DNA of 64,000 nucleotides from positions 1 to 64,000 of IMG/VR virus record IMGVR_UViG_3300028027_000057, one strand, 5' to 3'. The DNA comes from a virus. Each line of letters begins with the position of its first letter. Position 1 is the stretch's first letter. Below are positions 1 through 16,337 of the stretch, one piece after another. The translations under genes and the position numbers were made by a program. The notes beneath the pieces were generated by a model. That model had not been told where the DNA came from, did not search any database, and worked only from the letters and a program-made list of their open reading frames with translations.

Positions 1-1
1 T

Positions 2-241
2 GACGGATCATGGGACTATCGTAAGGTTATCTCATATACTAGGAACTCTAATGAGCCATTGATTGATCGACTTGATCTATTCGACAAGGCATACAATAGA
101 ACTCTAGTATCTGACTTTGAATCTCTTTCAGTATTCATGCAAGATATGGTCGAGGACTGTGATATTATGTCAGGCTTTAAGGAAGCTAGACTTCTTATAG
201 TAACAATGATTGAGGAACAAGAAAAGAAATCAAAGGGGTAG
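2..241 (+). CDS. 3' end of a hypothetical protein running in from the window edge
   Basis: The frame of ORF 59..241 is open back to position 2 (DGSWDYRKV...), so the true start lies outside the window. Confidence 0.6.
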   Translation, partial: DGSWDYRKVISYTRNSNEPLIDRLDLFDKAYNRTLVSDFESLSVFMQDMVEDCDIMSGFKEARLLIVTMIEEQEKKSKG

Positions 242-244
242 CCT

Positions 245-403
245 ATGATATTCGTTCAGTCTAATACATCTATTCGTACAGTAGAAGATCGTTACTTATT
301 CTGTAAGGTTCGATCCAATCAAGCTTGGACTAAAGATGGGTTCTGGACTTATCCGGGAACTCATGGTCAACTATCTTCCTTTAAACTGGAGTTCATTCTA
401 TGA
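245..403 (+). CDS. FKLEFI-family microprotein 1 (52 aa)
   Basis: Manual translation MIFVQSNTSIRTVEDRYLFCKVRSNQAWTKDGFWTYPGTHGQLSSFKLEFIL*; ATGA overlap with the next ORF. Confidence 0.8.
   Translation: MIFVQSNTSIRTVEDRYLFCKVRSNQAWTKDGFWTYPGTHGQLSSFKLEFIL
380..403 (+). repeat. Cassette-junction repeat copy 1 (TTTAAACTGGAGTTCATTCTATGA)
   Basis: Near-identical copies at 538, 699, 1569 and 3416; contains GGAG SD and ATGA stop/start. Confidence 0.9.
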
Positions 404-561
404 TTAAATTCACACAGATTAAACCTCGCCTTGCATATAGTAAAAAATTCTATCATCAAATTGTATTATGGGATGGATCAACTTACTATAGATCATTAAA
501 CGAGGGACACTTTAGAGAAAAGGAAAGTCTATCTGACTTTAAACTGGAGTTCATACTATGA
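400..561 (+). CDS. FKLEFI-family microprotein 2 (53 aa)
   Basis: MIKFTQIKPRLAYSKKFYHQIVLWDGSTYYRSLNEGHFREKESLSDFKLEFIL*; GGAG SD in the upstream repeat. Confidence 0.8.
   Translation: MIKFTQIKPRLAYSKKFYHQIVLWDGSTYYRSLNEGHFREKESLSDFKLEFIL
538..561 (+). repeat. Cassette-junction repeat copy 2 (TTTAAACTGGAGTTCATACTATGA)
   Basis: 1 mismatch to copy 1. Confidence 0.9.
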
Positions 562-722
562 CTATTAAGTTTGTTCAAAGCGGACTCTCTCAACCAGGTG
601 ACTATCTTAGAATGTTATTCTGTACTGTCAAGAAAGGTAAAGCATTTGAAATACAAGGATCACACTGGAACTACCCAGCCCCTGATTATTTCACTGACTT
701 CAATCTGGAGTTCATAAGATGA
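558..722 (+). CDS. FKLEFI-family microprotein 3 (54 aa)
   Basis: MTIKFVQSGLSQPGDYLRMLFCTVKKGKAFEIQGSHWNYPAPDYFTDFNLEFIR*. Confidence 0.8.
   Translation: MTIKFVQSGLSQPGDYLRMLFCTVKKGKAFEIQGSHWNYPAPDYFTDFNLEFIR
699..722 (+). repeat. Cassette-junction repeat copy 3 (TTCAATCTGGAGTTCATAAGATGA)
   Basis: Degenerate copy; provides the SD and ATG of the ATP-grasp gene. Confidence 0.85.
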
Positions 723-1453
723 AAACATTTATATCATATTCAAACAAATCCTCTCTAACCGGCAAAGCATTGAGAGAATCCCTAACAGCTAGACGTAAAC
801 GAACCAACAAGCGTGCCAAGTGTGACCTACTTGTACGATGGGGTAGTACAGAAGACTTCCCTAATCTACAAGCGAAGCTAGAACTCAATAGCTTAGCATC
901 AGTACGACGTGCTTCCAATAAGCTAGAAATGATTCGTGTCTTATCCGCAGCGGGTGTTACAATTCCATCATTCAATACAACAGTAGAAGATATAGATGAG
1001 TGCAAAGATAGCAGCGGTAATCTGTATATCCGAAGCAAGCTAGGGGTTGTAAGATACGGTAATGACTTCAATCCTTTAGCTGATCTATACTATACTGAAC
1101 CTATTGAATTGAAACGGCGAGAGTATAGAGTACACGTATTCCGTGGGAAGATCATAGGAATCTATGAGAAGGTTCCCCTAGTAGAGGGGGCGGCAAATCG
1201 CCCTAAGCTTTTCAAATCTAATACCTGCAAGTTCGTCAGATCAGACCCCTTAATTAGTCGTGTCGACCAAGAAGCCCAGTCTCTTTGTATTGCCGCCGTA
1301 AATGCCCTAGGATTAGACTTCGGGGGGGTAGACTTAGTGCGATGTAGGGACAAATCATTCGTCGTCCTAGAAGTTAACTCAAGCCCCGGCCTTAACTCAC
1401 AAATGCTAGAGAGGTATACTAATGAAATCAATCAATGTTTGTCAGTTACTTAG
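719..1453 (+). CDS. RimK-like ATP-grasp ligase
   Basis: EYRVHVF, LGLDFGGVDL and LEVNSSPGL motifs of RimK/phage ATP-grasp enzymes. Confidence 0.85.
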   Translation: MKTFISYSNKSSLTGKALRESLTARRKRTNKRAKCDLLVRWGSTEDFPNLQAKLELNSLASVRRASNKLEMIRVLSAAGVTIPSFNTTVEDIDECKDSSGNLYIRSKLGVVRYGNDFNPLADLYYTEPIELKRREYRVHVFRGKIIGIYEKVPLVEGAANRPKLFKSNTCKFVRSDPLISRVDQEAQSLCIAAVNALGLDFGGVDLVRCRDKSFVVLEVNSSPGLNSQMLERYTNEINQCLSVT

Positions 1454-1592
1454 AGGTTCAAGTAACCACGGCTGGGACTTTCACTTCATGGTTAAAGAGA
1501 TACATCACACTAAGTTACAATATAAAACAAAACATTCTTCTAATATGTCTCCAGAACCTAATAATCAATTCAAACTGGAGTTCATCCTATGA
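1422..1592 (+). CDS. FKLEFI-family microprotein 4 (56 aa)
   Basis: MKSINVCQLLRGSSNHGWDFHFMVKEIHHTKLQYKTKHSSNMSPEPNNQFKLEFIL*; GAGGT SD at 1411-1415. Confidence 0.75.
   Translation: MKSINVCQLLRGSSNHGWDFHFMVKEIHHTKLQYKTKHSSNMSPEPNNQFKLEFIL
1569..1592 (+). repeat. Cassette-junction repeat copy 4 (TTCAAACTGGAGTTCATCCTATGA)
   Basis: 2 mismatches to copy 1. Confidence 0.9.
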
Positions 1593-1774
1593 TTATAGTA
1601 CAGCTTAATTCAAACCCATCGTCACAGAAGTTACTGTTTGCTAAACAAGAACTAAATACTAGATTCACTACAACAAAAGGTAAATGGTCTTATCCTGATA
1701 CACATTACTTCACAAGCTTCAAGCTTGAATTTATAACAACTACTCCATATATATTCGACGACATTCCATTCTAG
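1589..1774 (+). CDS. FKLEFI-family microprotein 5 with SSB-tail-like DDIPF end (61 aa)
   Basis: LLFA, WSYP and FKLEFI motifs shared with paralogs 1 and 3; C-terminus YIFDDIPF. Confidence 0.8.
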   Translation: MIIVQLNSNPSSQKLLFAKQELNTRFTTTKGKWSYPDTHYFTSFKLEFITTTPYIFDDIPF

Positions 1775-1782
1775 GAGAAACT

Positions 1783-2181
1783 ATGTCTAGTACCATGATG
1801 ATAGGACTTATGCTAACCCATGTCCTAACAGACTGGATACTACAAGACAGAGAGACAGCCAAGAACAAGTCTAGCAACTGGCGATATCTTCTACCTCATC
1901 TATTCATTATCTACATAGGTCTATTAATCTGGGGGTATAGCAACGGACTTTATTTCCGTAATAGCTTCGTCTTCGCTTTACTTAATGTAATACTTCATGG
2001 TATCATAGACAAGTATCTATGGACTATCTACAAGTATGCAGTAGTTAAAAGATTTCCAGAGGTTAAGAAAGGTATGCCCTTTGAATACTGGGAAGACAAT
2101 TGGTTCTATAACTTCATAGCGATCGACCAGCTACTACATGGTATCTGTTACGTTCTAATCTTCAATCTAGTTACAAGGTAG
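1783..2181 (+). CDS. DUF3307-like membrane protein
   Basis: Hydrophobic segments with H..DW.LQ, H.IID and DQLLH motifs; AGGAG SD. Confidence 0.7.
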   Translation: MSSTMMIGLMLTHVLTDWILQDRETAKNKSSNWRYLLPHLFIIYIGLLIWGYSNGLYFRNSFVFALLNVILHGIIDKYLWTIYKYAVVKRFPEVKKGMPFEYWEDNWFYNFIAIDQLLHGICYVLIFNLVTR

Positions 2182-2361
2182 GTACATCATCTTAGTATTA
2201 ATACTAGCAGTCTCGGTAATTGGTATCAAGTTACTCGGCCCAAGTCTAGCCGGTAACATATTCCTCAAGGGAATACTTGTTGTACTTGAGTTCGTACTAT
2301 CGGCAGTAGCTACATTTATTTTCCCAGCGTTTGTTATATTTCTTTTTATGTGGGGTAGGTA

Positions 2362-2541
2362 ATGACAATAGTTATTAAACAGTGGATTGAGAATAGAAAA
2401 GGTTCTTTTTACTTATGTTCTGATAAGCAAATTAAATTCATAGATTCAGATAGGATGACTTGGTACAATGGAAACTATCTAGCAAAGATAGAATACTACG
2501 ATGATGTTTCAACAACCTTCTCGTTAGCATTTATAACTTAG
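2362..2541 (+). CDS. FKLEFI-family microprotein 6, divergent (59 aa)
   Basis: MTIVIKQWIENRKGSFYLCSDKQIKFIDSDRMTWYNGNYLAKIEYYDDVSTTFSLAFIT*; same hydrophobic-strand-Q start and FxLxFI end. Confidence 0.6.
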   Translation: MTIVIKQWIENRKGSFYLCSDKQIKFIDSDRMTWYNGNYLAKIEYYDDVSTTFSLAFIT

Positions 2542-2548
2542 GAGTTAC

Positions 2549-2824
2549 ATGAACAAGAGAGATAAGATAGATTACCTTCTGTCTCTCATTAAGGAACAGA
2601 CCGATGAGTTCCTAGAGACTGAGTTAATATCTAGCATGAATCTAAGCGAAGAGGAACTAATCACTGCAGCTATGGAAGTCGTACTACGTCAGTCAGTAAT
2701 GACGATAGAGTATTCTATGCCTATAGGTAAAGTAGATAGAGACAACGTATCATTTGTAATAGATAAGAATATACAGATAGCATTAACATCTAGTATAGAG
2801 GAGACTGAAGATGACGAGGATTAA
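2549..2824 (+). CDS. Hypothetical acidic protein
   Basis: ORF with AGGAG SD. Confidence 0.6.
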   Translation: MNKRDKIDYLLSLIKEQTDEFLETELISSMNLSEEELITAAMEVVLRQSVMTIEYSMPIGKVDRDNVSFVIDKNIQIALTSSIEETEDDED

Positions 2825-3050
2825 GTATAGTCGTAAAGGTTCTGTATTAGTAACTGACTTTATTACTATAGGCCCTAACAGTGTAGTCCGTGGTGTTATA
2901 TTATCAGACTTTGTATATTACATATATACTTTTGATGCTGATGTAATGTATAGCGGACAGTCTTCTAATCTTCGTAATGCTAAGGCTAAAATCAAACAAC
3001 TTCTTTTATCATGTGGTGCTAAATTCAAAGAAGAGATACGAAATAGATAA
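2811..3050 (+). CDS. Hypothetical protein
   Basis: ORF with GAGGAG SD, overlapping the upstream gene. Confidence 0.55.
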   Translation: MTRIKYSRKGSVLVTDFITIGPNSVVRGVILSDFVYYIYTFDADVMYSGQSSNLRNAKAKIKQLLLSCGAKFKEEIRNR

Positions 3051-3078
3051 TTTTAGGTAGATATCTTAACAGCCCCAG

Positions 3079-3112
3079 AGTTGTTATACGTCGTCATCAA
3101 ATAGGTTGTCAA
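3079..3112 (-). promoter_or_regulatory. Candidate antisense promoter facing the microprotein array
   Basis: Minus strand TTGACA(3112-3107)-N18-TATAAC(3088-3083), overlapping the TAACAACT motif (3086-3079). Confidence 0.4.
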
Positions 3113-3199
3113 CAACTTTCTTCCAATATAATTCAAATACAGAACAATTACAAACAGTTATATACTTCGCACTAATCCCATTAACACTAGAGGTCATAT

Positions 3200-3457
3200 A
3201 TGAGCAAGCTACTTGTTATCTATCAGTATAATAACGCTCCATCTACTAGAAGAAATGGAGCAAACGCGGGGTGGGATGGAACTCTAGGACCTTGGCAATA
3301 CTTAACATTGAAAAGAACAGGCAATAAAATAAGAAAGTACGATACTGGATATGGTAGAACTGGTAGTAGCCCAACTACAATCAAAGATTGGGAAGATAAC
3401 TGCGTCAATACTGAGTTCAAACTGGAGTTCATATATGACACGAGTGGTGACTCATGA
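3200..3457 (+). CDS. FKLEFI-family microprotein 7 (85 aa)
   Basis: LVIYQ start, EFKLEFIY near the C-terminus; GAGGT SD. Confidence 0.75.
   Translation: MSKLLVIYQYNNAPSTRRNGANAGWDGTLGPWQYLTLKRTGNKIRKYDTGYGRTGSSPTTIKDWEDNCVNTEFKLEFIYDTSGDS
3416..3438 (+). repeat. Cassette-junction repeat copy 5 with 1-nt deletion (TTCAAACTGGAGTTCATATATGA)
   Basis: Identical core; TGA shifted out of frame. Confidence 0.85.
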
Positions 3458-4038
3458 TTAAGCAACGATACTCCCTATACTACAACGAAGCTATTATCGA
3501 CAAGGAATCTACTGACCTAATCAAACAATGGCATTACTCTAGATCATCTAGATCACAACAACAAAAACATGTATTCAAACTCGTAGACAATACTGACAAC
3601 TCATTAACAGGAGTAGCTATCTATGGTAACCCAATGTCTAGACACTTCAACAAGTTAGAGACAATAGAACTTAGACGACTATGTTTAATTGACGACACTC
3701 CAAAGAACACAGAGAGTTACTTCATTGCTCAAACTCTCCGTTGGTTAGGTAAGCACACTACATACAAACAAGTCGTATCATTCGCTGATCCTAATCATGG
3801 ACACGCCGGCACTATTTACAAAGCAAGCAACTTCCTATATGATGGGAGAGAGAAGAATGAGAACCCAAGGATCGTCCAGTATGGTGAGAAGCAAATCCAT
3901 CTACGTCAGATGTACCAGAAAACAGGAGGTAGTTATTCAGAGGATGCTAAACGTATTCAAGCCGCGGTTGCTTCAGGAGAAGCACAAGTAATAAAGCAAG
4001 AACAGAAACATAGATACTTATATAACTTAAGGGGATAA
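3454..4038 (+). CDS. Mom-like (GNAT) DNA modification protein
   Basis: HYS, ELRRL, NTES.FI and SFADP..GH.GTIYKASNF motifs typical of the Mu Mom-like family. Confidence 0.75.
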   Translation: MIKQRYSLYYNEAIIDKESTDLIKQWHYSRSSRSQQQKHVFKLVDNTDNSLTGVAIYGNPMSRHFNKLETIELRRLCLIDDTPKNTESYFIAQTLRWLGKHTTYKQVVSFADPNHGHAGTIYKASNFLYDGREKNENPRIVQYGEKQIHLRQMYQKTGGSYSEDAKRIQAAVASGEAQVIKQEQKHRYLYNLRG

Positions 4039-4039
4039 C

Positions 4040-4237
4040 ATGACAGTCTACATTAATGGTATTGTAAATTTAGAAGCAACTAATGAAGCAAACTTAGAAG
4101 CAAGTAAGCGAGCAACTGCCGTAGCTAATCAACACTATGGTATACTGCTAACAGCATTAGAACTACTAAACGCTGGTAATAATAAAGAAGCAACGTCATT
4201 GATTAATAGTTACCTAGTTGAATCAGATGAAGTCTAG
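4040..4237 (+). CDS. Hypothetical protein
   Basis: ORF with SD, in a tightly packed operon. Confidence 0.5.
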   Translation: MTVYINGIVNLEATNEANLEASKRATAVANQHYGILLTALELLNAGNNKEATSLINSYLVESDEV

Positions 4238-4239
4238 CT

Positions 4240-4503
4240 ATGATCAAACCTATAACCCTAACGGATGTAGAAATTGAAAAGATGGTATCTAAACCTTATA
4301 CTGTGTTTAGCAATTGGGATCGTAACTGGTCTAATGATTATGGATATGATGACTGGGCTAATCCCCCTAGTTCTAAAAGAACTAAACATGAGTGGGTAAA
4401 GTCCAGCTATTTTTCAGCTAACGTATACTTTACTTGTAAGCTCTGCGGAGCTAAGCAAGAAAAAACAATAGGAGATTACTGTGAAGAAGCAACTAAGTTC
4501 TAG
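4240..4503 (+). CDS. Hypothetical protein with H..W/CxxC Zn-binding motif
   Basis: HEW...CKLCG...C. Confidence 0.5.
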   Translation: MIKPITLTDVEIEKMVSKPYTVFSNWDRNWSNDYGYDDWANPPSSKRTKHEWVKSSYFSANVYFTCKLCGAKQEKTIGDYCEEATKF

Positions 4504-4774
4504 TATCGGTGAGAGGATCAACCTCTTTGATGGATACCTTGACCCTAGCGTAGAGATGTTCAATGTCTTATTCTATGAGTGTCCCTTAACTGGATACAAC
4601 CCAGATGACCTAGTAACGATCGGACAGATGGTCAGTGGTAACCGCAGGGAGATACTTGTCGGAGAGGTCCTAGTCGAACACAAGATGTTCAGCAACCTAT
4701 TGTATGGAATGGACAGGGATGAGTTTAACAACCAAGAGTCTGAGATCGAAGACATCATGGGATACCCAGTATGA
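4481..4774 (+). CDS. Hypothetical protein
   Basis: GTG start with AGGAG SD. Confidence 0.5.
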   Translation: MKKQLSSSIGERINLFDGYLDPSVEMFNVLFYECPLTGYNPDDLVTIGQMVSGNRREILVGEVLVEHKMFSNLLYGMDRDEFNNQESEIEDIMGYPV

Positions 4775-4986
4775 GGTTTTACTTAGAGATCGAGACAGAA
4801 GGTAATACTATTACTGTAACACAGAAAATCAAGCGTGGATTTAGATGTAGAGAATCTAAGAATGAATTGGATATTTTGTCATTAGACTGGACAGGAACAC
4901 CCGTGCTTCCTACAGGAACACCATTGACCATGGAACTAATAGACGCAGCGATCGCAGCTTTAGAACAACCAACACGGAGACGATAA
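4771..4986 (+). CDS. Hypothetical protein
   Basis: ATGA-coupled ORF. Confidence 0.5.
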   Translation: MRFYLEIETEGNTITVTQKIKRGFRCRESKNELDILSLDWTGTPVLPTGTPLTMELIDAAIAALEQPTRRR

Positions 4987-5115
4987 ATGAAACAAGTCAT
5001 AACTTTTCTCTTGCTTTTTTTAGTATCTTGTGGTAGTCTAGAATATACTCCAGCTGATCCTTCAGACTTGGGGTCATTTAATCCTAACGAAGGTAACCAC
5101 GGGAGACTACGCTAA
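4987..5115 (+). CDS. Small putative lipoprotein (42 aa)
   Basis: MKQVITFLLLFLVSCGS...: basic N-terminus, hydrophobic core, lipobox LVSC. Confidence 0.55.
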   Translation: MKQVITFLLLFLVSCGSLEYTPADPSDLGSFNPNEGNHGRLR

Positions 5116-5495
5116 TGAAAAAGGAACTCATTGTATTCATTGCAACAAACGAAGAAGGCGAAGCTATCAGAGTTAGCCGAGTAGACGACGGATCAAATCG
5201 ATTCATGTTACTGACCCTAGGTGTTAATCGTATGGTAGTAGACGTAGCAGAGTTAATGGATGGGATCGGAGCTATCGGACATTACTCAACACTCTTCGAT
5301 CAAGAAGAACTTATGAAAGCAATGCGTGCTAAGACTCAGTCAAGTCCACAACCTCCAGTAACTAATCCTATTCAAAAGGAAGAAGAGATTGTATTCGATG
5401 TGGCCATGTCATCAGGACCTTCAGCCAGTGAGCTAGCATTAGAAGCACAGACCAAGCACATGCAAGGTGGGACTCTAGTATTAAAAGAAGAATAA
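5115..5495 (+). CDS. Hypothetical protein
   Basis: TAATG-coupled ORF with GGAG SD. Confidence 0.55.
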   Translation: MKKELIVFIATNEEGEAIRVSRVDDGSNRFMLLTLGVNRMVVDVAELMDGIGAIGHYSTLFDQEELMKAMRAKTQSSPQPPVTNPIQKEEEIVFDVAMSSGPSASELALEAQTKHMQGGTLVLKEE

Positions 5496-5519
5496 ACAAT
5501 AACAATTGGAAAATGCAAC

Positions 5520-5738
5520 GTGGATATTTTTTGTATTGCAATTCTCATAGGACTTGTGGTAAGATTAGTATGTAAGTTCGGCATATATCTGTATTTAAGG
5601 ACAAACAAATCTGAAGAAGAGATACGTAGTAAGAAAGGATTTCAAACTCTAATCTTTATGTATGTCTTCAATAAGATTCTATTGCTTATACATATAACAA
5701 TATATGCTGCTCTTGCTGTACGTACTTATCTATTATAA
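5520..5738 (+). CDS. Small 2-TM membrane protein
   Basis: Two hydrophobic segments. Confidence 0.5.
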   Translation: MDIFCIAILIGLVVRLVCKFGIYLYLRTNKSEEEIRSKKGFQTLIFMYVFNKILLLIHITIYAALAVRTYLL

Positions 5739-5749
5739 TCAGGAGAACA

Positions 5750-7600
5750 ATGAACAAGTCGAATCGTTTATTAGCAGAACTCGTAGCCTACCGAACATAT
5801 GCAAAATATCTATCACACGCTAATCGACGAGAGGCTTTAGCTGAGACTATCAATCGTAACATGACAATGCACCTTGATAAGTTCCCAACCCTAAGCCGAG
5901 ACATTATTAAAGCATATAAACAGGTACATGACCTAAAGGTTATGCCATCTATGCGATCTCTTCAGTTCGGCGGAGAAGCAATCACTAAGAACAACGTAAG
6001 GTTATTCAATTGTAGCTTTGCTCACATCAAATACGTCAGAGTCTTCGCTGAAGCCCTGTATTTACTTCTATCCGGTACAGGATTCGGCTTCTCTGTACAG
6101 CAACGCCACATTTCACAGCTACCTAGCATCAAACTCCCTAAAGAAGAGGGAACATACGTAGTTCATGACAGTATTGAGGGGTGGGCTGAGGCATTGAACC
6201 GATTAATGGAGGCATACTTCTATGGAGCCATCCGTCCATTGTTCGATCTTAGTCTTGTTCGCCAAAAAGGCAGCTATCTTGTAACGACAGGGGCAAAAGC
6301 GCCCGGTCCAGAGCCACTTCGTCAGATGTTGGTCAAAGTAGAGGCAATACTAAAGACTTGTATCGGCAGAAAGATGACTGACCTAGAGACTCATGATGTA
6401 CTTTGTCTAATTGCAGACTGTGTGCTAGCTGGAGGTATCCGTAGGGCAGCACTTATTAGTCTCTTCGACCGAGATAGCAAGCTAATGTTAACTTCCAAGC
6501 ATGGAAACTGGTGGGAGAAGCATCCTCATCGTGCACGGGCTAACAATTCAGCAGTTTTGATACGTGGACAAGTTAGTATGGAAGAATTCTACCATGTATA
6601 CGACCAATGTATCGCATCTAACGCGGGAGAACCTGGATTCTTCTGGACAAATGATCCAGAGTGGGGAACAAACCCATGTGCAGAGATTGCATTGCAGTCT
6701 AACCAGTTCTGTAACCTAACTACTACAAACTTAACGGGAATTAAGAATGACAAAGACTTCGAGAACCGCATCTACGCAGCGAGCTTCCTCGGAACGCTCC
6801 AAGCCACGTACACGGACTTCCCATACCTCAGTGAAAGGTGGAAGCAAGTCACAGAAGAAGAAGCCCTTATCGGATGCAGCTTTACTGGAATTGCTGACTC
6901 AAGCTTATTGTCTGGCGAAAGCCTCAGAGACGCTGCAAGAACAGTTCTCGACATTAATGCTAAGTATTCAAAAAAACTCGGGATCAACCCGGCAGCAAGG
7001 GCTACTGCTATTAAGCCTGAAGGAACTGCATCATGCGTTCTTGGATCAAGTAGTGGAATCCACGCAAGGCATGATCAATTTTATCTCCGTAGAGTAAGGA
7101 TGAATCGAGACGATGAACTAGCTAAGTATCTAATGCGAGTTTGTCCTGAGCTTGTAGAAGCTGATCTATTCTCACAGACAGGAGTTGTAGTAACCATCCC
7201 ACAGGAATCTCCTGCCGGCGCTGTGTTACGTAACAACGAGTCAGCTATAGAACTATTCGAGAGAGTGAAACTATACTACGAGAACTGGGTAGTGCCGGGA
7301 CATAGGTCAGGAGCTAACACACACAACGTAAGTTGTACAATTAACTATCGTCCAGAAGAAACCGAGCTACTTAAGATCAAGCTATGGCAAGATAGAGAAT
7401 CATATGCAGCGGTTGCATTGTTACCAGCAAGCGATACTATTTACCAACAAGCGCCGTTTGAAGGATGCGACGAAGCGACCTTCAAGAAGTTCGATGCAAT
7501 GGTAAAAGATATTGACTTGACAAAGGTAATGGAGATGGAAGATAATACAAACCGAGCAGAGCAGCTCAGTTGTGCAGGCGGATTATGTGAAATTTTATAA
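5750..7600 (+). CDS. nrdJ: Class II (adenosylcobalamin-dependent) ribonucleotide reductase
   Basis: FNC, GTGFGF, AGGIRRAA, TNPCAEI, KPEGT and C-terminal CAGGLC; no beta subunit nearby. Confidence 0.9.
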   Translation: MNKSNRLLAELVAYRTYAKYLSHANRREALAETINRNMTMHLDKFPTLSRDIIKAYKQVHDLKVMPSMRSLQFGGEAITKNNVRLFNCSFAHIKYVRVFAEALYLLLSGTGFGFSVQQRHISQLPSIKLPKEEGTYVVHDSIEGWAEALNRLMEAYFYGAIRPLFDLSLVRQKGSYLVTTGAKAPGPEPLRQMLVKVEAILKTCIGRKMTDLETHDVLCLIADCVLAGGIRRAALISLFDRDSKLMLTSKHGNWWEKHPHRARANNSAVLIRGQVSMEEFYHVYDQCIASNAGEPGFFWTNDPEWGTNPCAEIALQSNQFCNLTTTNLTGIKNDKDFENRIYAASFLGTLQATYTDFPYLSERWKQVTEEEALIGCSFTGIADSSLLSGESLRDAARTVLDINAKYSKKLGINPAARATAIKPEGTASCVLGSSSGIHARHDQFYLRRVRMNRDDELAKYLMRVCPELVEADLFSQTGVVVTIPQESPAGAVLRNNESAIELFERVKLYYENWVVPGHRSGANTHNVSCTINYRPEETELLKIKLWQDRESYAAVALLPASDTIYQQAPFEGCDEATFKKFDAMVKDIDLTKVMEMEDNTNRAEQLSCAGGLCEIL

Positions 7601-8584: not shown

Positions 8585-9211
8585 ATGAAGATTACATGCA
8601 TATCGGATACGCATCAACATCATAAGAAGATCAAGATGCCTAGTACTGATATGATTATATGCGCCGGAGACTTTACATATCACGGAGAACTAGAAGAAGT
8701 ACAGAAGTTCCTTAAATGGTATGGACAACAGAAAGCCAAACATAAGATTCTAGTATGTGGTAATCACGAGAAATGGATTAGCCAACAAGGTGATCTACTT
8801 AAGTTACTATGTGAGAACGAAGGTATCAAACTACTACATAACTCATATACTACAATCGAAGGACTTACAATCTGGGGGTCTCCTTACTCTAAGAAGTTTG
8901 GAGCATGGGCATACGGACTAGACGAGACAGACCTAGCCAACCTATACGATACTATCTTACCCACTACTGACATAGTAGTAACACATGGACCGGCTTACGA
9001 TAGACTGGACTGGTGTCCGAATGGTAAGGTAGGAAGCACAGCATTGGCTCACCGACTAGACGAGCTTAGTAATTTAAAGCTACATATCACTGGACATATA
9101 CATGAAAGTCGTGGTACTCTATTACGGAACGGGGTGTTAACAGTTAACGCTTCTATTTGTGGTATACCATATTCAGATGTGATTTACAATCCAATCACGG
9201 TGGAGTTATAA
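8585..9211 (+). CDS. Metallophosphoesterase (MPPED-like)
   Basis: SDTH, AGD, GNHE, THGP and GHIHE; likely start ATG 8585 after GGAGG. Confidence 0.85.
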   Translation: MKITCISDTHQHHKKIKMPSTDMIICAGDFTYHGELEEVQKFLKWYGQQKAKHKILVCGNHEKWISQQGDLLKLLCENEGIKLLHNSYTTIEGLTIWGSPYSKKFGAWAYGLDETDLANLYDTILPTTDIVVTHGPAYDRLDWCPNGKVGSTALAHRLDELSNLKLHITGHIHESRGTLLRNGVLTVNASICGIPYSDVIYNPITVEL

Positions 9212-9549
9212 TGCTAAGACTATTATCTATACTTGTAGTATTCCTAATTTTAATACAATATGTTAAAGCTGAGACTAGATTTCCAACGGATAAGGTACAA
9301 CACATAGAAGGAAAGAGACTATATGTATTATATTGCACTCGCTGTCATAACGCTAATCCTAGCAACGCTGGCTCTATCGGTCCAGAGTTATACACAACTC
9401 CAAGTAATGTCTTCAGAACGAAAGTGCCAGAAGGAAAATATCCGAGCGGGTATACACCCAAGAGACGTACGAAGATCATGCCGAAGTTTCCGCAGTTAAA
9501 AGATAAAACTGATTTGATATATAACTATATCAGGAGCACAAAGAAATGA
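9211..9549 (+). CDS. Secreted monoheme c-type cytochrome
   Basis: Signal peptide, G..LY...CTRCH heme motif, GPEL and distal MP axial Met; GGAG SD before ATG 9211. Confidence 0.8.
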   Translation: MLRLLSILVVFLILIQYVKAETRFPTDKVQHIEGKRLYVLYCTRCHNANPSNAGSIGPELYTTPSNVFRTKVPEGKYPSGYTPKRRTKIMPKFPQLKDKTDLIYNYIRSTKK

Positions 9550-13106: not shown

Positions 13107-13829
13107 ATGAGATTACTTAATTTATTATTAGCAACGACTATCTTCTTTCTTTTAATAAATATTAAAGTATCTCAAACTCCAGTCAGAGAAAAGGTATTCA
13201 TCCCTTATGTAGAAAGTCTATGTGTTGCTCTAAAAGAAAGAGGACATTCCTGTAGATTAATAGAAACAGTATCTATTAGAAAAGCAGTGCTATCTAAGAA
13301 ACTAGCAGGGCTTTATCACCCACTAGCACACGACATACTAATCAGTACTGAAGTGTGGGATAGGTCAAGCGATGAAGTAAGAGAGCAGTTAGTATATCAT
13401 GAACTAGGTCACGCGCTAGGGTTAGACCATATAGAGTATGGAATTATGCAGTCCGGTGGATTTATTAACGATACATTTTATAAAAGATACAGAGATATGT
13501 TTATTGAAGAAATGCTAGGAGAACTAGCATTAACACCTAAGGAGAAGCTAGTGACAAAAGCAGATGTGCTAAATAACAAACATGCTGTAGTGCGATTTAC
13601 TGCAACATGGTGTCCTCCTTGTAAAGCTCTAGCTCCAATCTTTGATGAAGTCGCGGCTGCAAATCCAGACGTTGTAACGTATGTTATAGACGTAGATCAG
13701 AACATGGACCTAGCTAGGGATATGGGAGTCAGAGGATTGCCGACGATGATTCAAATCAAGGATAATGCAGTGTCGACATCTCTTGTTGGCTTGCAGTCTA
13801 AAACTGAAGTAGAGAAGCTATTCAAATGA
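13107..13829 (+). CDS. Signal peptide + metzincin Zn-protease fused to thioredoxin
   Basis: HELGHALGLDH with GIM Met-turn; C-terminal WCPPC and GLPT thioredoxin motifs; internal SD+GTG at 13551. Confidence 0.8.
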   Translation: MRLLNLLLATTIFFLLINIKVSQTPVREKVFIPYVESLCVALKERGHSCRLIETVSIRKAVLSKKLAGLYHPLAHDILISTEVWDRSSDEVREQLVYHELGHALGLDHIEYGIMQSGGFINDTFYKRYRDMFIEEMLGELALTPKEKLVTKADVLNNKHAVVRFTATWCPPCKALAPIFDEVAAANPDVVTYVIDVDQNMDLARDMGVRGLPTMIQIKDNAVSTSLVGLQSKTEVEKLFK

Positions 13830-13958: not shown

Positions 13959-14144
13959 ATGTTGTACCACAAGACGATTAATTCATTCTTTGTTTCTATT
14001 GTTCGGATCAAGTATCAGAACGATAATTATGTTAAATGTCATCTAAGATATTTTAACAAAGGGTCTAACCGACTTATAACAGAAGAACGTAATGTTAAAA
14101 TTATGAAGTCTGCTATGAAACACTGGGAAGTATATGACAATTAG
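13959..14144 (+). CDS. Hypothetical protein
   Basis: ORF track. Confidence 0.4.
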   Translation: MLYHKTINSFFVSIVRIKYQNDNYVKCHLRYFNKGSNRLITEERNVKIMKSAMKHWEVYDN

Positions 14145-15183
14145 ATTATCACATTCAGCTCGCGGTAAACACGATCACTGTGCAATGATGTACAAGCTAC
14201 ACTATCAAGACAAGATTCGCCCTTTAGGTTCTACCTCTGCCCTGCTATTCGGGTCAGCCGTAGATAAAGCGTGCGAAGATTATATGCTAAACAGGAATCA
14301 GCTTAGAGCTAGACAAATATTTAAAGACGAATGGAAAAAAGTCCAAGAAGGATTTGAGGAAGAAAATGGAACAATTAGCCCGGTCGACTATCATTCTAAT
14401 GACTTTGATGCTGAGTTGCTCCTTCAACCCGATAACGAACTTATTCTTAAAGATACAGTATATAAGACAGTATCCGATCTTTTCAAAGCCGGAGAAGAAA
14501 AAGAACGAATAAGATATTGTAACTGGGTTAGCATGTACCGCAAAGGAACGATGCTTGTAAACAAGTTCATAGAGTGGGTTGACCACAACGTAGAAGAAGT
14601 ACTCGGTGCTCAAGTTGCGATCGAGCTAGAAGATGAGGACGGAAACCAAGTAACAGGATTTGCCGACTTTGTAATTAAAATCCATGGATACGATAAACCT
14701 ATTCTAGTAGACTTAAAAACCGCAGGCAGATACTACGAACGCGGGTCGGTCAAAGAGTCAGAGCAGCTTGCCTTATACTTCCTATATCTAAAGAATACTA
14801 AGTATCCAGATATGGAGAGGGCTGCCTTTCTAGTATTGAATAAGATGATTAAGAAGAACCGCACTAAGACCTGTAAGAAGTGTGGAACTGTTACAACAGG
14901 ACGAGAGAAGACTTGTGCAGTCGGGACTGGCAAAAGCCGATGTCACGGAGAGTTCGATGAAGTAATAGACCCAGAGGTTAATCTTCAGTATATTCATGAC
15001 GAGATTCCTCAGGACTTTATCGACGCGACAATCGAAAAGTTTAACCTAACACTAGAGGGAATTAAGTCAGGCGAGTTCCAAAAGAACCTAGCTGGATGCG
15101 ATAGATATTACGGAAGAGAATGTCCATATAAGAAATACTGTGAGTCTGGTTGTATGACCGGACTTTATAAAAAGGAAGCATAA
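14134..15183 (+). CDS. PD-(D/E)XK exonuclease, Cas4/RecB-like
   Basis: LSHS..C, GFAD, VDLKT, QLALY and C-terminal Cys cluster. Confidence 0.8.
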   Translation: MTIRLSHSARGKHDHCAMMYKLHYQDKIRPLGSTSALLFGSAVDKACEDYMLNRNQLRARQIFKDEWKKVQEGFEEENGTISPVDYHSNDFDAELLLQPDNELILKDTVYKTVSDLFKAGEEKERIRYCNWVSMYRKGTMLVNKFIEWVDHNVEEVLGAQVAIELEDEDGNQVTGFADFVIKIHGYDKPILVDLKTAGRYYERGSVKESEQLALYFLYLKNTKYPDMERAAFLVLNKMIKKNRTKTCKKCGTVTTGREKTCAVGTGKSRCHGEFDEVIDPEVNLQYIHDEIPQDFIDATIEKFNLTLEGIKSGEFQKNLAGCDRYYGRECPYKKYCESGCMTGLYKKEA

Positions 15184-15797: not shown

Positions 15798-16337
15798 ATG
15801 ATCAAATCAGACACGATCCAAAAAGTAGCAGCAGCTCTAGTTAAAGCCCAGAGCGAAATGGGAAATGCAAGCAAAGGCTCAGCCAACCCATTCTTCAAAT
15901 CTAAATATGCCGATCTTAATGCAATTAGAGAAGCTTGTCTTCCTTCGTTGTTCGCAAATGGATTGTCAGTAATGCAACCGACTGTTGTATTAGATGGTAA
16001 GAGTTATATTGAAACTTTGATTATTCATGAATCAGGTGAATACATCGGCGGTCATACAGAGATCGTATACGCTAAACAGAATGATGCTCAAAACTTTGGA
16101 GCAGGTACAACTTACGCTAGACGTTTTGGATTACAAGCATTACTTTGTATTGGCGCTGAGGATTCTGATGGTGAAGAAGCAGTTGGTAGGAACACAAAAC
16201 CAAACGTGACTAAACCAACTGTGACAACAGTTACAGTATCTGCTGCAACAGAAACAGCTCCTACCACTAAAAAAGGGTTCGGAGTTAAGACAGAGACAAC
16301 TAAAGTAGCAACCCCAACAACAGACGAATGGTCGTAG
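15798..16337 (+). CDS. erf: ERF-family ssDNA annealing protein
   Basis: NPFFKSKYADL and GA..TYARRF.L.A...I...D.DG. Confidence 0.9.
   Translation: MIKSDTIQKVAAALVKAQSEMGNASKGSANPFFKSKYADLNAIREACLPSLFANGLSVMQPTVVLDGKSYIETLIIHESGEYIGGHTEIVYAKQNDAQNFGAGTTYARRFGLQALLCIGAEDSDGEEAVGRNTKPNVTKPTVTTVTVSAATETAPTTKKGFGVKTETTKVATPTTDEWS

Follow-up and report, generated by a model that had tools for sequence, protein, structure and literature searches.

A question raised by this region of an uncultured freshwater phage is what kind of genes make up an array of very small open reading frames (ORFs) with similar ends, dissimilar interiors, and a recurring DNA repeat, set among conserved genes. The stretch analysed (the window) covers 64,000 nucleotides and begins within the conserved gene that precedes the array (Table 1).

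A family of small paralogs between conserved genes

Seven small plus-strand ORFs had been proposed from the DNA letters, and all seven were confirmed. These ORFs are real paralogs belonging to one small-protein family. The proposed N-terminal strand ending in Q and the C-terminal motif reappeared in the alignment as invariant positions Q5, F46, L48, F50, and I51 (ORF1 numbering). Pairwise identity among the seven was 76% over the C-terminal 7 columns, 36% over the N-terminal 6 columns, and 16% in between, supporting a single family whose end strands are conserved and whose interiors change fast. LF[CA] and W[TNS]YP, said to be common to three ORFs, were found in ORF1, ORF3, and ORF5. The description of the middles as mostly unrelated failed for these three, which are 32 to 45% identical overall.

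Table 1. Features of the array region and its anchoring genes (window coordinates)
Feature	Coordinates	Strand	Basis or remark
Upstream anchor, class-II glutamine amidotransferase (GATase)-like, 3' end only	2..241	+	5' part beyond contig start
Cassette 1, 52 aa	245..403	+	Alignment; ortholog P0004; AF2 model pLDDT 76, five strands
Junction 1: FKLEFIL codons, GGAG, ATGA	380..403	+	Repeat, codon, and overlap analysis
Cassette 2, 53 aa	400..561	+	Alignment; orthologs P0007, P0019
Junction 2	538..561	+	Repeat and overlap analysis
Cassette 3, 54 aa; 3' junction starts ATP-grasp gene	558..722	+	Orthologs P0006, P0031, P0032
Junction 3, into ATP-grasp gene	699..722	+	Repeat and overlap analysis
Anchor, RimK-like ATP-grasp ligase	719..1453	+	Pfam RimK 1.7e-8
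Cassette 4, 56 aa; 32-nt overlap with ATP-grasp 3' end	1422..1592	+	Orthologs P0008, P0034
Junction 4	1569..1592	+	Repeat and overlap analysis
Cassette 5, 61 aa, C-terminal extension ending FDDIPF	1589..1774	+	Alignment; tail kept in orthologs
Anchor, DUF3307 membrane protein	1783..2181	+	Pfam 6e-12; 44-56% identical to relatives' counterparts
Cassette 6, 59 aa, motif FSLAFI	2362..2541	+	Alignment; ortholog P0035
Conserved intergenic element GGTTGTCAACAACT	3104..3117	+	In 150-nt gap 5' of cassette 7
Cassette 7, 85 aa	3200..3457	+	Ortholog P0013; 35% identical to same-slot L012 5561-5764
Junction-like copy inside cassette 7	3416..3438	+	CTGGAG kept; ATG opens just 8-codon frame
Anchor, Mom-like DNA modification protein	3454..4038	+	Pfam Mom 6e-35; 68% identical to L012 6273-6854

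Family proteins are about 55 residues long (range approximately 45 to 85), with an N-terminal h-x-h-x-Q motif and a C-terminal F-[KR]-L-[ER]-[FL]-[IV] motif. No match to the family was found in Pfam, PHROG, NCBIfam, or PDB. Among 1.84 billion representatives, a profile search returned 12 matches, 10 of them small-ORF relatives and 2 unrelated long proteins, with no fused form among the 12, and searches of the complete records of the four phages compared found no members outside the arrays. The family is rare, previously unnamed, lineage-specific, and multigene. Paralogs within the window are 17 to 45% identical, and each clusters with its own ortholog, with strong support for most. This grouping, and a 3-nt indel in strain X6 that leaves the reading frame intact, show conservation of every ORF as a gene.

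Three syntenic relatives (L009, L010, and L012) keep the same order of anchors: class-II GATase, RimK-like ATP-grasp, DUF3307, a 90-aa gene, a 79-aa gene, and Mom. Anchors in these relatives are 33 to 77% identical to those of the window (RNR, 85 to 95%), the ATP-grasp being 55 to 62% identical to its three counterparts. The truncated product at the start of the window shares 43 to 51% identity with the C-terminal ends of L009 3331-4560 and L012 23-991, both of which match Pfam GATase_6. In a group of freshwater and subsurface phages, the family was shown to sit in an early or replication-side operon, where its members occupy fixed slots, alone or several in tandem, between anchors that include Amidoligase_2. 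The L012 gap at 5765-5907 contains an identical copy of element GGTTGTCAACAACT, which does not recur in the window.

An AF2 model of cassette 1 (pTM 0.50) predicts, at moderate confidence, a five-stranded all-beta mini-domain in which the conserved N- and C-terminal motifs form the first and last strands. Structure searches gave weak matches to Hfq, Sm, SH3, and Tudor small beta-barrels (Z 3 to 3.8) and no significant neighbor. Likeness to Hfq, Sm, and LSm barrels (Z about 3), together with the tight coupling of the genes and the conservation of the edge strands, would fit paralogs that serve as subunits of a single hetero-oligomer, such as an Sm/Hfq-like ring with end strands as interfaces and coupling that equalizes amounts. 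Such an assembly is very unlikely: the structural matches are below significance, and copy numbers of 5, 5, 7, and 19 among the four phages are ill-suited to a fixed stoichiometry.

A junction that encodes protein and starts the next gene

A 17-nt core, TTYAAMCTGGAGTTCAT, is exact at 380, 538, 1569, and 3416 and carries one mismatch at 699. Against these five matches, chance predicts 0.07, and no shuffle out of 100 gave five; elsewhere in the 75,088-bp phage record, the core was not found beyond this array region. The sequence-only reading had placed a 24-bp repeat at five ORF ends. The core is present in all five, but the full 24-mer with CTATGA occurs only at 380, 538, and 1569, as the copy at 699 ends AGATGA and that at 3416 ends TATATGA. 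ATGA stop/start overlaps lie at 400, 558, 719, 1589, and 3454. The last of these opens Mom, which starts 30 nt past the GGAG of the 3416 copy and has its own GGTG.

Codon choice set the junctions apart from the remainder of the genome. Every one of the five repeat copies carries CTG-GAG, which spells GGAG, despite the rarity of CTG (3% of Leu codons; GAG makes up 33% of Glu codons), and the two members whose motif is not directly followed by a gene start have other codons (CTT-GAA in ORF5 and TTA-GCA in ORF6). That the repeat combines motif, Shine-Dalgarno sequence, and overlapping start was upheld across four phages, where the 3' motif codons serve the next gene: its Shine-Dalgarno lies inside the cassette's 3' codons in 22 of 36 cases, and the cassette stop overlaps its start in 21 of 36. 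The usual codons in the C-terminal strand are CTG-GAG, giving GGAG 7 to 9 nt upstream of the stop-overlapping ATG, and a cassette therefore brings a translation-initiation region for whatever comes next.

Conservation is strongest exactly over the Shine-Dalgarno and start, the interiors evolve very fast (pN/pS about 1.3 against strain X4), and the family lacks a known domain, all as would be seen if the ORFs were translated spacers without protein function, whose 3' ends relay ribosome binding and start and whose motif is a nucleotide constraint. This explanation is highly improbable, since the motif is kept at the protein level by other codons where no gene follows, for example in ORF5 (AAG-CTT-GAA-TTT-ATA), ORF6, and several members of L012 and L009. 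The N-terminal strand and LF / W-x-YP are also conserved, where no ribosome-binding role exists. All orthologs keep open frames, the sole indel seen is a multiple of three, dN/dS between L009 and L010 is 0.25 to 0.7 and not 1, and AF2 yields a consistent five-strand model.

Cassette gain, loss, and divergence

The array had been proposed to expand and shuffle by recombination at the repeats. Membership does vary, with 7 cassettes in the window, 5 in each of two relatives, and 19 in L012, of which 7 were assigned solely from their motif, size, and position. The A3 profile, to which the relatives had not contributed, recovered 12 L012 ORFs with E<1, 8 of them with E<=0.1. Recent expansion was not borne out, as the window paralogs are old (17 to 45% identity) and each pairs with its own ortholog, and neither was recent reshuffling. 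In L012, cassette 8 shares 44% identity with cassette 10, two positions away, and the neighboring first and second cassettes of L009 are 36 to 40% identical; tandem duplication followed by divergence is probably one route to a change in copy number. Within a single sample (run X4), ORF7 is present in one strain and missing from another, where a contig links 3152 to 3457 via 21 other letters. Gain and loss of whole cassettes were shown to change copy number. Order was fixed in contigs of four runs, and no junction-to-junction recombinant was seen, the sole indel observed having different end points. The ERF and exonuclease genes invoked for recombination are present, at 15798-16337 and, as a PD-(D/E)XK nuclease, at 14134-15183.

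Sequence comparisons at two distances revealed how quickly the cassettes diverge. Between the near-identical L009 and L010, four cassettes are 78.5 to 90% identical in DNA and a fifth is 98%, versus 95 to 99% for flanking genes; pN is 0.114 in cassettes versus 0.0073 in flanks (16-fold), and pS is 0.233 versus 0.095. Between the window and strain X4, pooled pN/pS is 1.3 for cassettes versus 0.09 for the ATP-grasp gene (Fisher p 0.001), the latter being under purifying selection. For example, 9 nucleotide changes in cassette 4 produce 7 amino acid changes, and 14 of 15 differences in cassette 5 fall within 40 nt (1650-1689). The family varies far faster than adjoining genes at synonymous and nonsynonymous sites alike. 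Because alleles exceed the flanks so far at both site classes, the data point to selection of a diversifying or balancing kind, acting alongside recombination at the scale of cassettes. With the L009/L010 cassette dN/dS below 1, positive selection is not established, and relaxed constraint with recombination could give the same divergence numbers.

Dense patches of differences, as in ORF5 against X4 (14 of 40 nt) and at several places between L009 and L010, are also what a targeted mutator of the interiors, such as a diversity-generating retroelement, would leave. This source of variation is extremely unlikely and largely refuted. No reverse transcriptase is present in the record (88% complete), a search for a template repeat found none, changes hit all four bases and not adenines alone, and synonymous divergence is raised as well, as expected of old alleles.

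Known parallels and probable function

The assertion that no described system has this architecture was overstated. Repeat-mediated cassette shuffling is described for early regions of T4-type phages (PeSLs; Arbiol et al. 2010, PMC2839356). Like the array, these hyperplastic regions hold small, mostly function-unknown early genes between conserved genes (PMC2839356; PMC4122927), with a short repeated expression signal between genes and whole-ORF insertion, deletion, and replacement among relatives. The PeSL is a noncoding sigma-70 promoter plus terminator stem-loop acting on transcription, whereas the array repeat encodes a last strand, Shine-Dalgarno, and start and acts on translation. Array cassettes, unlike PeSL cassettes, all belong to one protein family. 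PeSL recombination was shown experimentally (mini-circles), whereas recombination at the array repeat is a proposal.

Citrobacter phage CVT22 (NC_027988) shares the tail-as-RBS design. In seven of its ORFs (63 to 81 aa), unrelated interiors are followed by an invariant LENE tail; the codons of that tail, YTG-GAG-AAY-GAA-TAA-TG, supply GGAG along with an overlapping start for the following gene. These ORFs are likewise interleaved with amidoligase and ATP-grasp genes. The two families have no detectable homology (hhalign probability 0.3%), and CVT22 differs in its N-terminal K-x-GD-L-V, acidic tail, host, and phage family (Zobellviridae). No published discussion of the LENE design was found, including in the title and abstract of the genome announcement (PMC4505115).

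Ordinary ATGA/TAATG coupling, with a Shine-Dalgarno in the upstream gene, is the mechanism at 21 to 22 of 36 array junctions. The difference is that in the array the Shine-Dalgarno-bearing codons also encode the protein motif that a multigene family conserves best, and so every copy inherits its junction, which reappears as a repeat in the DNA. Poxvirus K3L amplification and the MGFs of ASFV also involve tandem, fast-evolving paralogs whose number varies in close relatives, and such gene accordions of large DNA viruses are commonly interpreted as genes for host interaction in an arms race. These eukaryotic viruses have larger genes with their own promoters and no dual-use junction, and function is demonstrated for some; the array resembles them in copy-number variation but has the dual-use junction and an inferred function. 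The T4 internal-protein locus is polymorphic and encodes unrelated small proteins with a common short capsid-targeting sequence, an N-terminal signal that is cleaved, in late genes. In the array, both ends are conserved as modelled strands of one fold, and the neighbors are early or replication genes.

The close tie to amidoligase, GATase, and ATP-grasp genes means that the proteins may be substrates or tags of these enzymes instead of free-standing binders, with the C-terminal tail as recognition or ligation site and the variable body as cargo or target-binding part. Ligation to tails has parallels in RimK acting on ribosomal protein S6, tubulin-tyrosine ligase on tubulin, and Pup with PafA. 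In all four phages, the array begins right after the GATase and has members on both sides of the ATP-grasp gene, and many L012 members carry an acidic residue just past the strand (IYE, IYD, VYEE). Two unrelated phages with the same enzymes have adjoining small ORFs with a common tail and unrelated bodies, seven ending LENE in CVT22 and three ending GDTEEDI in Rhizobium phage RHph_N3_19, and protein modification has been predicted for phage ATP-grasp enzymes of the wider group to which this one belongs (PMC4431377). A substrate role is nonetheless unlikely. Phages DES1, LAMP, APT65, and FBPa8 share the ATP-grasp and GATase without nearby tailed small ORFs, and the ATP-grasp occurs in 314 phage records, while tblastn of the phage collection with cassette 3 found no family relative. 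L012 cassettes reach far past the enzymes, up to Mom, and the conservation of the CVT22 tail is also explained by its RBS role, the LENE stop being written YTGGAGAAYGAATAATG. The ATP-grasp scores far under RiPP maturase cutoffs (27 bits versus 425) and that of RimK itself, and most window members close with a hydrophobic FIL that does not resemble known RimK or Pup-type tails.

The reading we favor, at a probability of about 0.6, is a fast-varying multigene family with a predicted all-beta fold and conserved end strands, a junction inherited by each copy, and products that are probable host or defense binders. Position, size, and evolutionary rate suggest that the proteins probably bind host or defense factors, with specificity that would be carried by the quickly varying segments between the strands; the anti-defense or host-takeover repertoire first proposed is a candidate role. 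The FDDIPF tail of cassette 5, retained in P0002, P0003, and P0011, resembles the SSB C-terminal tip, and this DDIPF ending could address SSB-partner proteins. When a cassette is duplicated, inserted, or deleted, the downstream gene should stay expressed.

A rare family of small proteins with conserved ends

The sequence-only reading had described an array of seven small plus-strand ORFs (ORF1 to ORF7, or cassettes 1 to 7), and all seven are present as described. An alignment bears out the termini that they were said to share, with an invariant Gln closing the hydrophobic stretch at the N terminus and F-x-L-x-F-I invariant close to the C terminus, and the structural and architectural part of that reading proved largely correct. 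Compared pairwise, the seven cassettes are 76% identical over the C-terminal motif, 36% over the N-terminal segment, and 16% over the stretch between them. The 17-nt core of the repeat, TTYAAMCTGGAGTTCAT, occurs in five copies against 0.07 expected, a number reached in no shuffle, and is absent from the rest of the source record (IMG/VR, linear, 75,088 bp, 39% G+C, an estimated 88% complete), of which the window covers bases 1 to 64,000. The last 11 kb of that record carry only minus-strand genes for virion and lysis functions and contain no additional cassette. All five repeat copies write CTG-GAG, though CTG makes up 3% of Leu codons in the genome; ORF5 has CTT-GAA and ORF6 TTA-GCA at the motif, and no gene starts directly behind either. 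The repeat is conserved at the DNA level too, beyond the protein that it encodes.

None of the seven ORFs matched Pfam, PHROG, or NCBIfam at family threshold, members from related phages matched no curated family (Pfam, PHROG, NCBIfam, and PDB sequences tested), and the cassette-family profile (A3) found no match among PDB sequences. Searched with the family profile, 1.84 billion representative proteins gave 12 matches, two of them spurious long proteins and none a fused form of a cassette protein; the other ten are metagenome small ORFs, mostly close orthologs of single window paralogs, with a few more distant. Most window paralogs cluster in a tree with their respective orthologs under strong support and are 17 to 45% identical to one another, so the duplications behind them are old. 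In further searches, the exact 24-mer repeat had no match in viral contigs, the cassette proteins and the ATP-grasp protein as queries found no related loci in viral or metagenome contigs, tblastn of cassette 3 found no relative in GenBank phages, and blastn of window positions 1 to 4200 matched Mom alone. The cassette family is previously unnamed and rare.

In an AlphaFold model of ORF1 from 25 sequences (pLDDT 76, pTM 0.50), the first and last predicted strands correspond to the conserved termini of the family. An earlier AF2 model of ORF3 from 19 sequences was poor (pLDDT 62), with no significant Foldseek match; for both models Foldseek gave E values of at least 1 throughout. BFVD matches of the ORF1 model were weak too, and a search of the ESM Atlas gave no usable neighbor. 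A VIA search of the ORF1 model gave a weak best Z of 3.8 and a list rich in small beta-barrels (Hfq, Sm, SH3, Tudor, and BirA-C, Z about 3), none significant. That each protein is a small all-beta domain, which may form a small barrel, is taken as a lead only, and it is very improbable that the cassettes are subunits of one ring.

One lineage carries an additional feature. ORF5 ends in YIFDDIPF, resembling the bacterial SSB C-terminal tip, and this tail is retained in metagenome relatives just 48 to 80% identical (NDIPF in P0002, DEIPF in P0003, TDDIPF in P0011). The SSB-Ct hexapeptide is given as DDDIPF in PMC5872125. By sequence, cassette 5 qualifies as such a tip, with D-D-(D)-I-P-F at the extreme C terminus after an acidic or hydrophobic run. 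No other ORF of the record ends in this way, and no SSB gene was recognized among the scanned ORFs. A tail of this kind on one lineage points to a candidate binding partner that is open to direct test, among SSB-partner proteins such as ExoI, RecQ, PriA, and chi.

Coordinates of the cassettes, neighboring features, and tailed ORF sets in other phages
Genome	Position	Feature	Detail
Window	2-241	GATase gene	3' end
Window	245-403	ORF1	modeled strands at residues 2-6, 17-23, 26-29, 32-35, 43-47 (AlphaFold)
Window	400-561	ORF2
Window	558-722	ORF3
Window	1422-1592	ORF4
Window	1589-1774	ORF5	SSB-like tail at 1741-1774
Window	2362-2541	ORF6
Window	3200-3457	ORF7
Window	400, 558, 719, 1589	ATGA overlaps	GGAG 8 nt ahead of ATG
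Window	3454	ATGA overlap, Mom start	GGTG only
Window	2171-2361	Open frame, hydrophobic peptide of ~50 aa	between DUF3307 and cassette 6
Window	3104-3117	14-nt element GGTTGTCAACAACT	identical in L012
Window	3454-4038	Mom gene
Window	13107-13829	240-aa ORF	C-terminal thioredoxin domain (1e-19); weak N-terminal metallopeptidase-like match
L009	5726-6265	179-aa zincin-like metallopeptidase gene	MPTase-PolyVal (Pfam), 1e-6
L010	5952-6491	179-aa zincin-like metallopeptidase gene	MPTase-PolyVal (Pfam), 1e-6
L009, L010	10001-11850	RNR gene
L012	5561-5764	Cassette	counterpart of ORF7
L012	about 5850	14-nt element GGTTGTCAACAACT	identical in window
CVT22 (L007, NC_027988)	521-3685	seven ORFs, 63-81 aa	all end in LENE; around amidoligase and ATP-grasp genes
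RHph_N3_19 (L008)	2232-5507	three small ORFs	end in GDTEEDI; flank ATP-grasp and GATase genes
Slicky01 (L021)	8864-9468	three ORFs	end in [LIV]LE; after primase, about 2.6 kb downstream of ATP-grasp gene

Copy number and divergence in fixed slots

Relatives were fetched with the nearby ribonucleotide reductase (RNR) as the query, and 3 of the 10 IMG/VR loci obtained are syntenic with window positions 1 to 7600: L009 (RNR 95% identical to that of the window), L010 (94%), and L012 (85%; an 87-kb record rated complete). Their conserved genes, or anchors, run in the Pfam-based order Amidoligase_2, an 88-aa gene, class-II GATase, ATP-grasp, DUF3307, a gene for a hydrophobic peptide of ~50 aa, a 90-aa gene, and a 79- to 96-aa gene, with Mom at the end of the series in L012 and the window. 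Amidoligase_2 and the 88-aa gene fall before the start of the window contig, and the relatives' anchors are 33 to 77% identical to those of the window. No Mom counterpart turned up in the loci of L009 and L010. In these two, the slot from ATP-grasp to DUF3307 also contains a zincin-like metallopeptidase gene, which the window lacks.

Cassettes per slot in the window phage and its syntenic relatives
Slot	Window	L009	L010	L012
GATase to ATP-grasp	3	2	2	4
ATP-grasp to DUF3307	2	2	2	7
DUF3307 to 90-aa gene	1	1	1	4
90-aa to 79-aa gene	0	0	0	1
79-aa gene to Mom	1	-	-	3
Total	7	5	5	19

The turnover of cassette number between relatives that had been predicted is seen, with 5, 5, 7, and 19 copies at a constant anchor order; in L012 the A3 profile, built without the relatives' sequences, recovered 12 ORFs at E<1 (8 at E<=0.1), the other members being counted by motif, size, and position alone. 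Every member opens with h-x-h-x-Q and closes with F-[KR]-L-[ER]-[FL]-[IV]. Between phages, most cassettes lack recognizable orthologs; one exception is ORF7, 35% identical to an L012 cassette in the same slot. Some nearby cassettes are reciprocal best matches (L012 cassettes 8 and 10, 44%; the adjacent L009 cassettes 1 and 2, 36 to 40%), a pattern that fits local duplication. Searches of the whole records of the three relatives and of the seven nonsyntenic loci gave no member beyond the arrays.

The cassettes are also hot spots of divergence. The genes flanking them are 95 to 99% identical in DNA between L009 and L010, against 87.5, 78.5, 97.9, 79.7, and 89.9% for cassettes 1 to 5, where differences lie in patches and the ends are conserved. 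Pooled pN is 0.114 in cassettes and 0.0073 in flanking anchors (16-fold, P = 4e-41), and pooled pS is 0.233 and 0.095 (2.5-fold, P = 4e-6), the anchor values excluding RNR. The dN/dS ratio is 0.25 to 0.70 in cassettes 1, 2, 4, and 5 and 0.04 to 0.14 in anchors. An independent pair, the window phage and a close strain in sequencing run X4, has 9 nucleotide differences and 2 amino acid changes in the ATP-grasp gene, 9 and 7 in ORF4, and 15 and 8 in ORF5, where 14 of the 15 fall inside 40 nt; the pooled pN/pS ratio of the cassettes is 1.3, against 0.09 for the ATP-grasp gene (P = 0.001). Because synonymous divergence is raised too, these differences are read as old or exchanged alleles probably maintained by selection, not just as faster protein change. 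A diversity-generating retroelement is unlikely, with no RVT_1 reverse transcriptase in the record, no template repeat, and changes in all bases, and diversification of the cassettes by a targeted mutator is judged highly improbable. In the L009/L010 comparison, RNR has a dS of 0.43, and the array anchors a few kilobases upstream have 0.03 to 0.24, mostly <=0.13; these genomes are mosaic at the kilobase scale.

Close strains keep the window cassette order, as seen in contigs of four runs that cover lake, sediment, and subsurface samples. In one X4 strain, positions 3153 to 3456 are replaced by 21 nt, GGAGCTTAGATGCTACACTCA, removing ORF7 and half of the gap upstream of it, and Mom begins MLHSIKQ... 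with its own, new SD and start; a second X4 contig retains ORF7. The end points of this replacement lie outside the junction repeats, the cassette 3' ends that combine FKLEFI codons, GGAG, and the ATGA stop/start overlap. Copy number differs between phages and ORF7 is polymorphic; no gain, loss, or replacement with both ends in junction repeats was mapped. One metagenome ortholog of ORF2 (P0036) continues beyond FKLEFIL into unrelated residues, which hints at a different downstream context and possibly at a rearrangement. Loose ends at 1491 and 1527 in run X5 stem from a 37-nt local match.

Several features lie in or near the array. A position at the physical genome end was rejected, since the contig lacks terminal repeats and begins inside a gene. 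A decayed cassette at 3106 to 3203 was considered (N-strand-like FFQYNSN, an LTLEVIY tail, E = 0.055 with an enlarged profile) and rejected; this stretch is more likely regulatory sequence and a ribosome binding site, because the 14-nt element there is identical in the L012 gap. These are the only sizeable noncoding gaps of both arrays. The element has no further copies in the window and includes TCAACAACT, one base off TAACAACT, a proposed late-promoter motif. The frame for a hydrophobic peptide (...LLGPSLAGNIFLKGILVVLEF...) has no ATG, GTG, or TTG until its last four codons, and counterparts in L009, L010, and L012 begin with ATG (MFAVRFLGVSLAGN...); the window copy may start at ATC or ATT after AAGGTAGG at 2175, or its start may be lost. 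Further along the window lies an ORF with a thioredoxin domain.

The C-terminal motif as an initiation region

Across the four phages, 21 of 36 cassettes have a stop that overlaps the next start by 4 to 11 nt, and in 22 of 36 the next gene's GGAG, GAGG, or AGGA lies within the last codons of the cassette, mostly in the L-E of the motif. The cassettes thus show the overlap and the SD inside the upstream coding sequence that mark translationally coupled overlapping genes. The gene behind a junction is another cassette or an anchor: ATP-grasp in all four phages, and the zincin-like gene in L009 and L010. In L012 the overlap also leads into an 81-aa gene (the counterpart of the window 79-aa gene) and Mom, but with a weak SD, TAGAG or TTGAG. 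If the next start lies at a greater distance, the motif has other codons or residues (L-I, L-T), and the gene behind it has a separate SD after the cassette stop. This distribution of SD codons at close junctions and other codons or residues elsewhere indicates that the motif is constrained both as protein and as RNA. That the cassettes are pure translated spacers is hardly credible. Since each copy brings the initiation region for the next gene, gain or loss of a copy is harmless to downstream expression. The mechanism of translational coupling itself is textbook. Scanning positions 1 to 5000 gave 20 promoter-like sites (15.9 expected), with none located at junctions, and no plus-strand terminator.

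The array is embedded in a set of Amidoligase_2, class-II GATase, and RimK-like ATP-grasp genes that recurs in many phages (314 records by tblastn with ATP-grasp). In Citrobacter phage CVT22, LENE and the stop are written YTGGAGAAYGAATRA (YTG-GAG-AAY-GAA-TAA-TG), and most of these tails supply the following gene with its SD and with a start that overlaps or abuts the stop. Tailed small ORFs also occur in Rhizobium phage RHph_N3_19 and Pseudoalteromonas phage Slicky01, and four other phages with these enzymes had no such set. The tail-as-ribosome-binding-site design is therefore not unique to the window phage. Homology of the CVT22 family to the window family was rejected (hhalign probability, 0.3%). 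The tailed ORFs of RHph_N3_19 and Slicky01 open with a VGD-x-V or ML/DLV-type strand.

This gene context bears on the possibility that the cassettes are substrates or tags, possibly a tag library, for the amidoligase/GATase/ATP-grasp genes, a reading that we regard as unlikely. Phage ATP-grasp enzymes of the wider group are predicted to modify proteins (PMC4431377). The window ATP-grasp protein scored 27 and 23 bits as an MvdC/MvdD-type graspetide maturase, against cut-offs of 425 and 475, and its best family is RimK-like, also under cut-off. A graspetide precursor has a conserved leader and a short core with set Thr/Ser/Lys and Asp/Glu positions and does not fold independently. The A3 alignment is conserved at both ends and variable in the middle, with no fixed T/S/K...D/E pattern. 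The folded five-strand domain predicted by AF2 likewise argues against a RiPP precursor.

Proposed mechanism and biological meaning

We give a probability of about one in five to the reading in which the junction is the portable "plug" of a recombination-driven repertoire system. The plug would unite the SD and the ATGA overlap with the codons of the last beta-strand, and behind it would usually come the codons for the first strand of the following copy. Junctions would recombine through short homology, with help from the phage ERF and nuclease, so that binder cassettes could be inserted, deleted, or swapped ahead of any gene with expression intact, and the phage population would maintain a shuffled collection of small binders directed at host factors. 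Both this mechanism of recombination and the role of the cassettes are hypotheses. If true, the array would amount to an integrase-free phage equivalent of integron-like cassette arrays.

Conceptually, the array has a parallel in the multigene families and gene accordions of large DNA viruses. Among described systems, the closest is the modular shuffling of promoter/stem-loop (PeSL) cassettes in T4-type phages (PMC2839356), which is alike in its plastic early region and repeated expression signal. In those phages, relatives differ in that ORFs between PeSL repeats have been gained, lost, or replaced. The PeSL repeat, however, is noncoding and sits between ORFs, with a strong sigma-70-like early promoter and a terminator stem-loop, whereas the window repeat lies inside coding sequence. 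What is new is the combination of a previously unnamed family, strong turnover of copy number and alleles in fixed slots, and a motif that doubles as a portable initiation region. The built-in coupling device may explain the spread of the family through the operon. It also offers a searchable design principle, in which the most conserved motif is the next gene's ribosome binding site and each copy has its own coupling device.

Undiscovered functions in host takeover and counter-defense reside mainly in small early phage proteins, which are hard to annotate. With 5 to 19 copies among phages that retain the surrounding gene order, 16-fold higher nonsynonymous divergence than in neighboring genes, and conserved ends around a variable interior, the cassettes carry what appears to be an unusually strong signature of host interaction. 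CVT22, with its unrelated family of the same design, provides a cultured model for testing the function of such proteins and their possible link to the poorly understood phage amidoligase/ATP-grasp/GATase genes.
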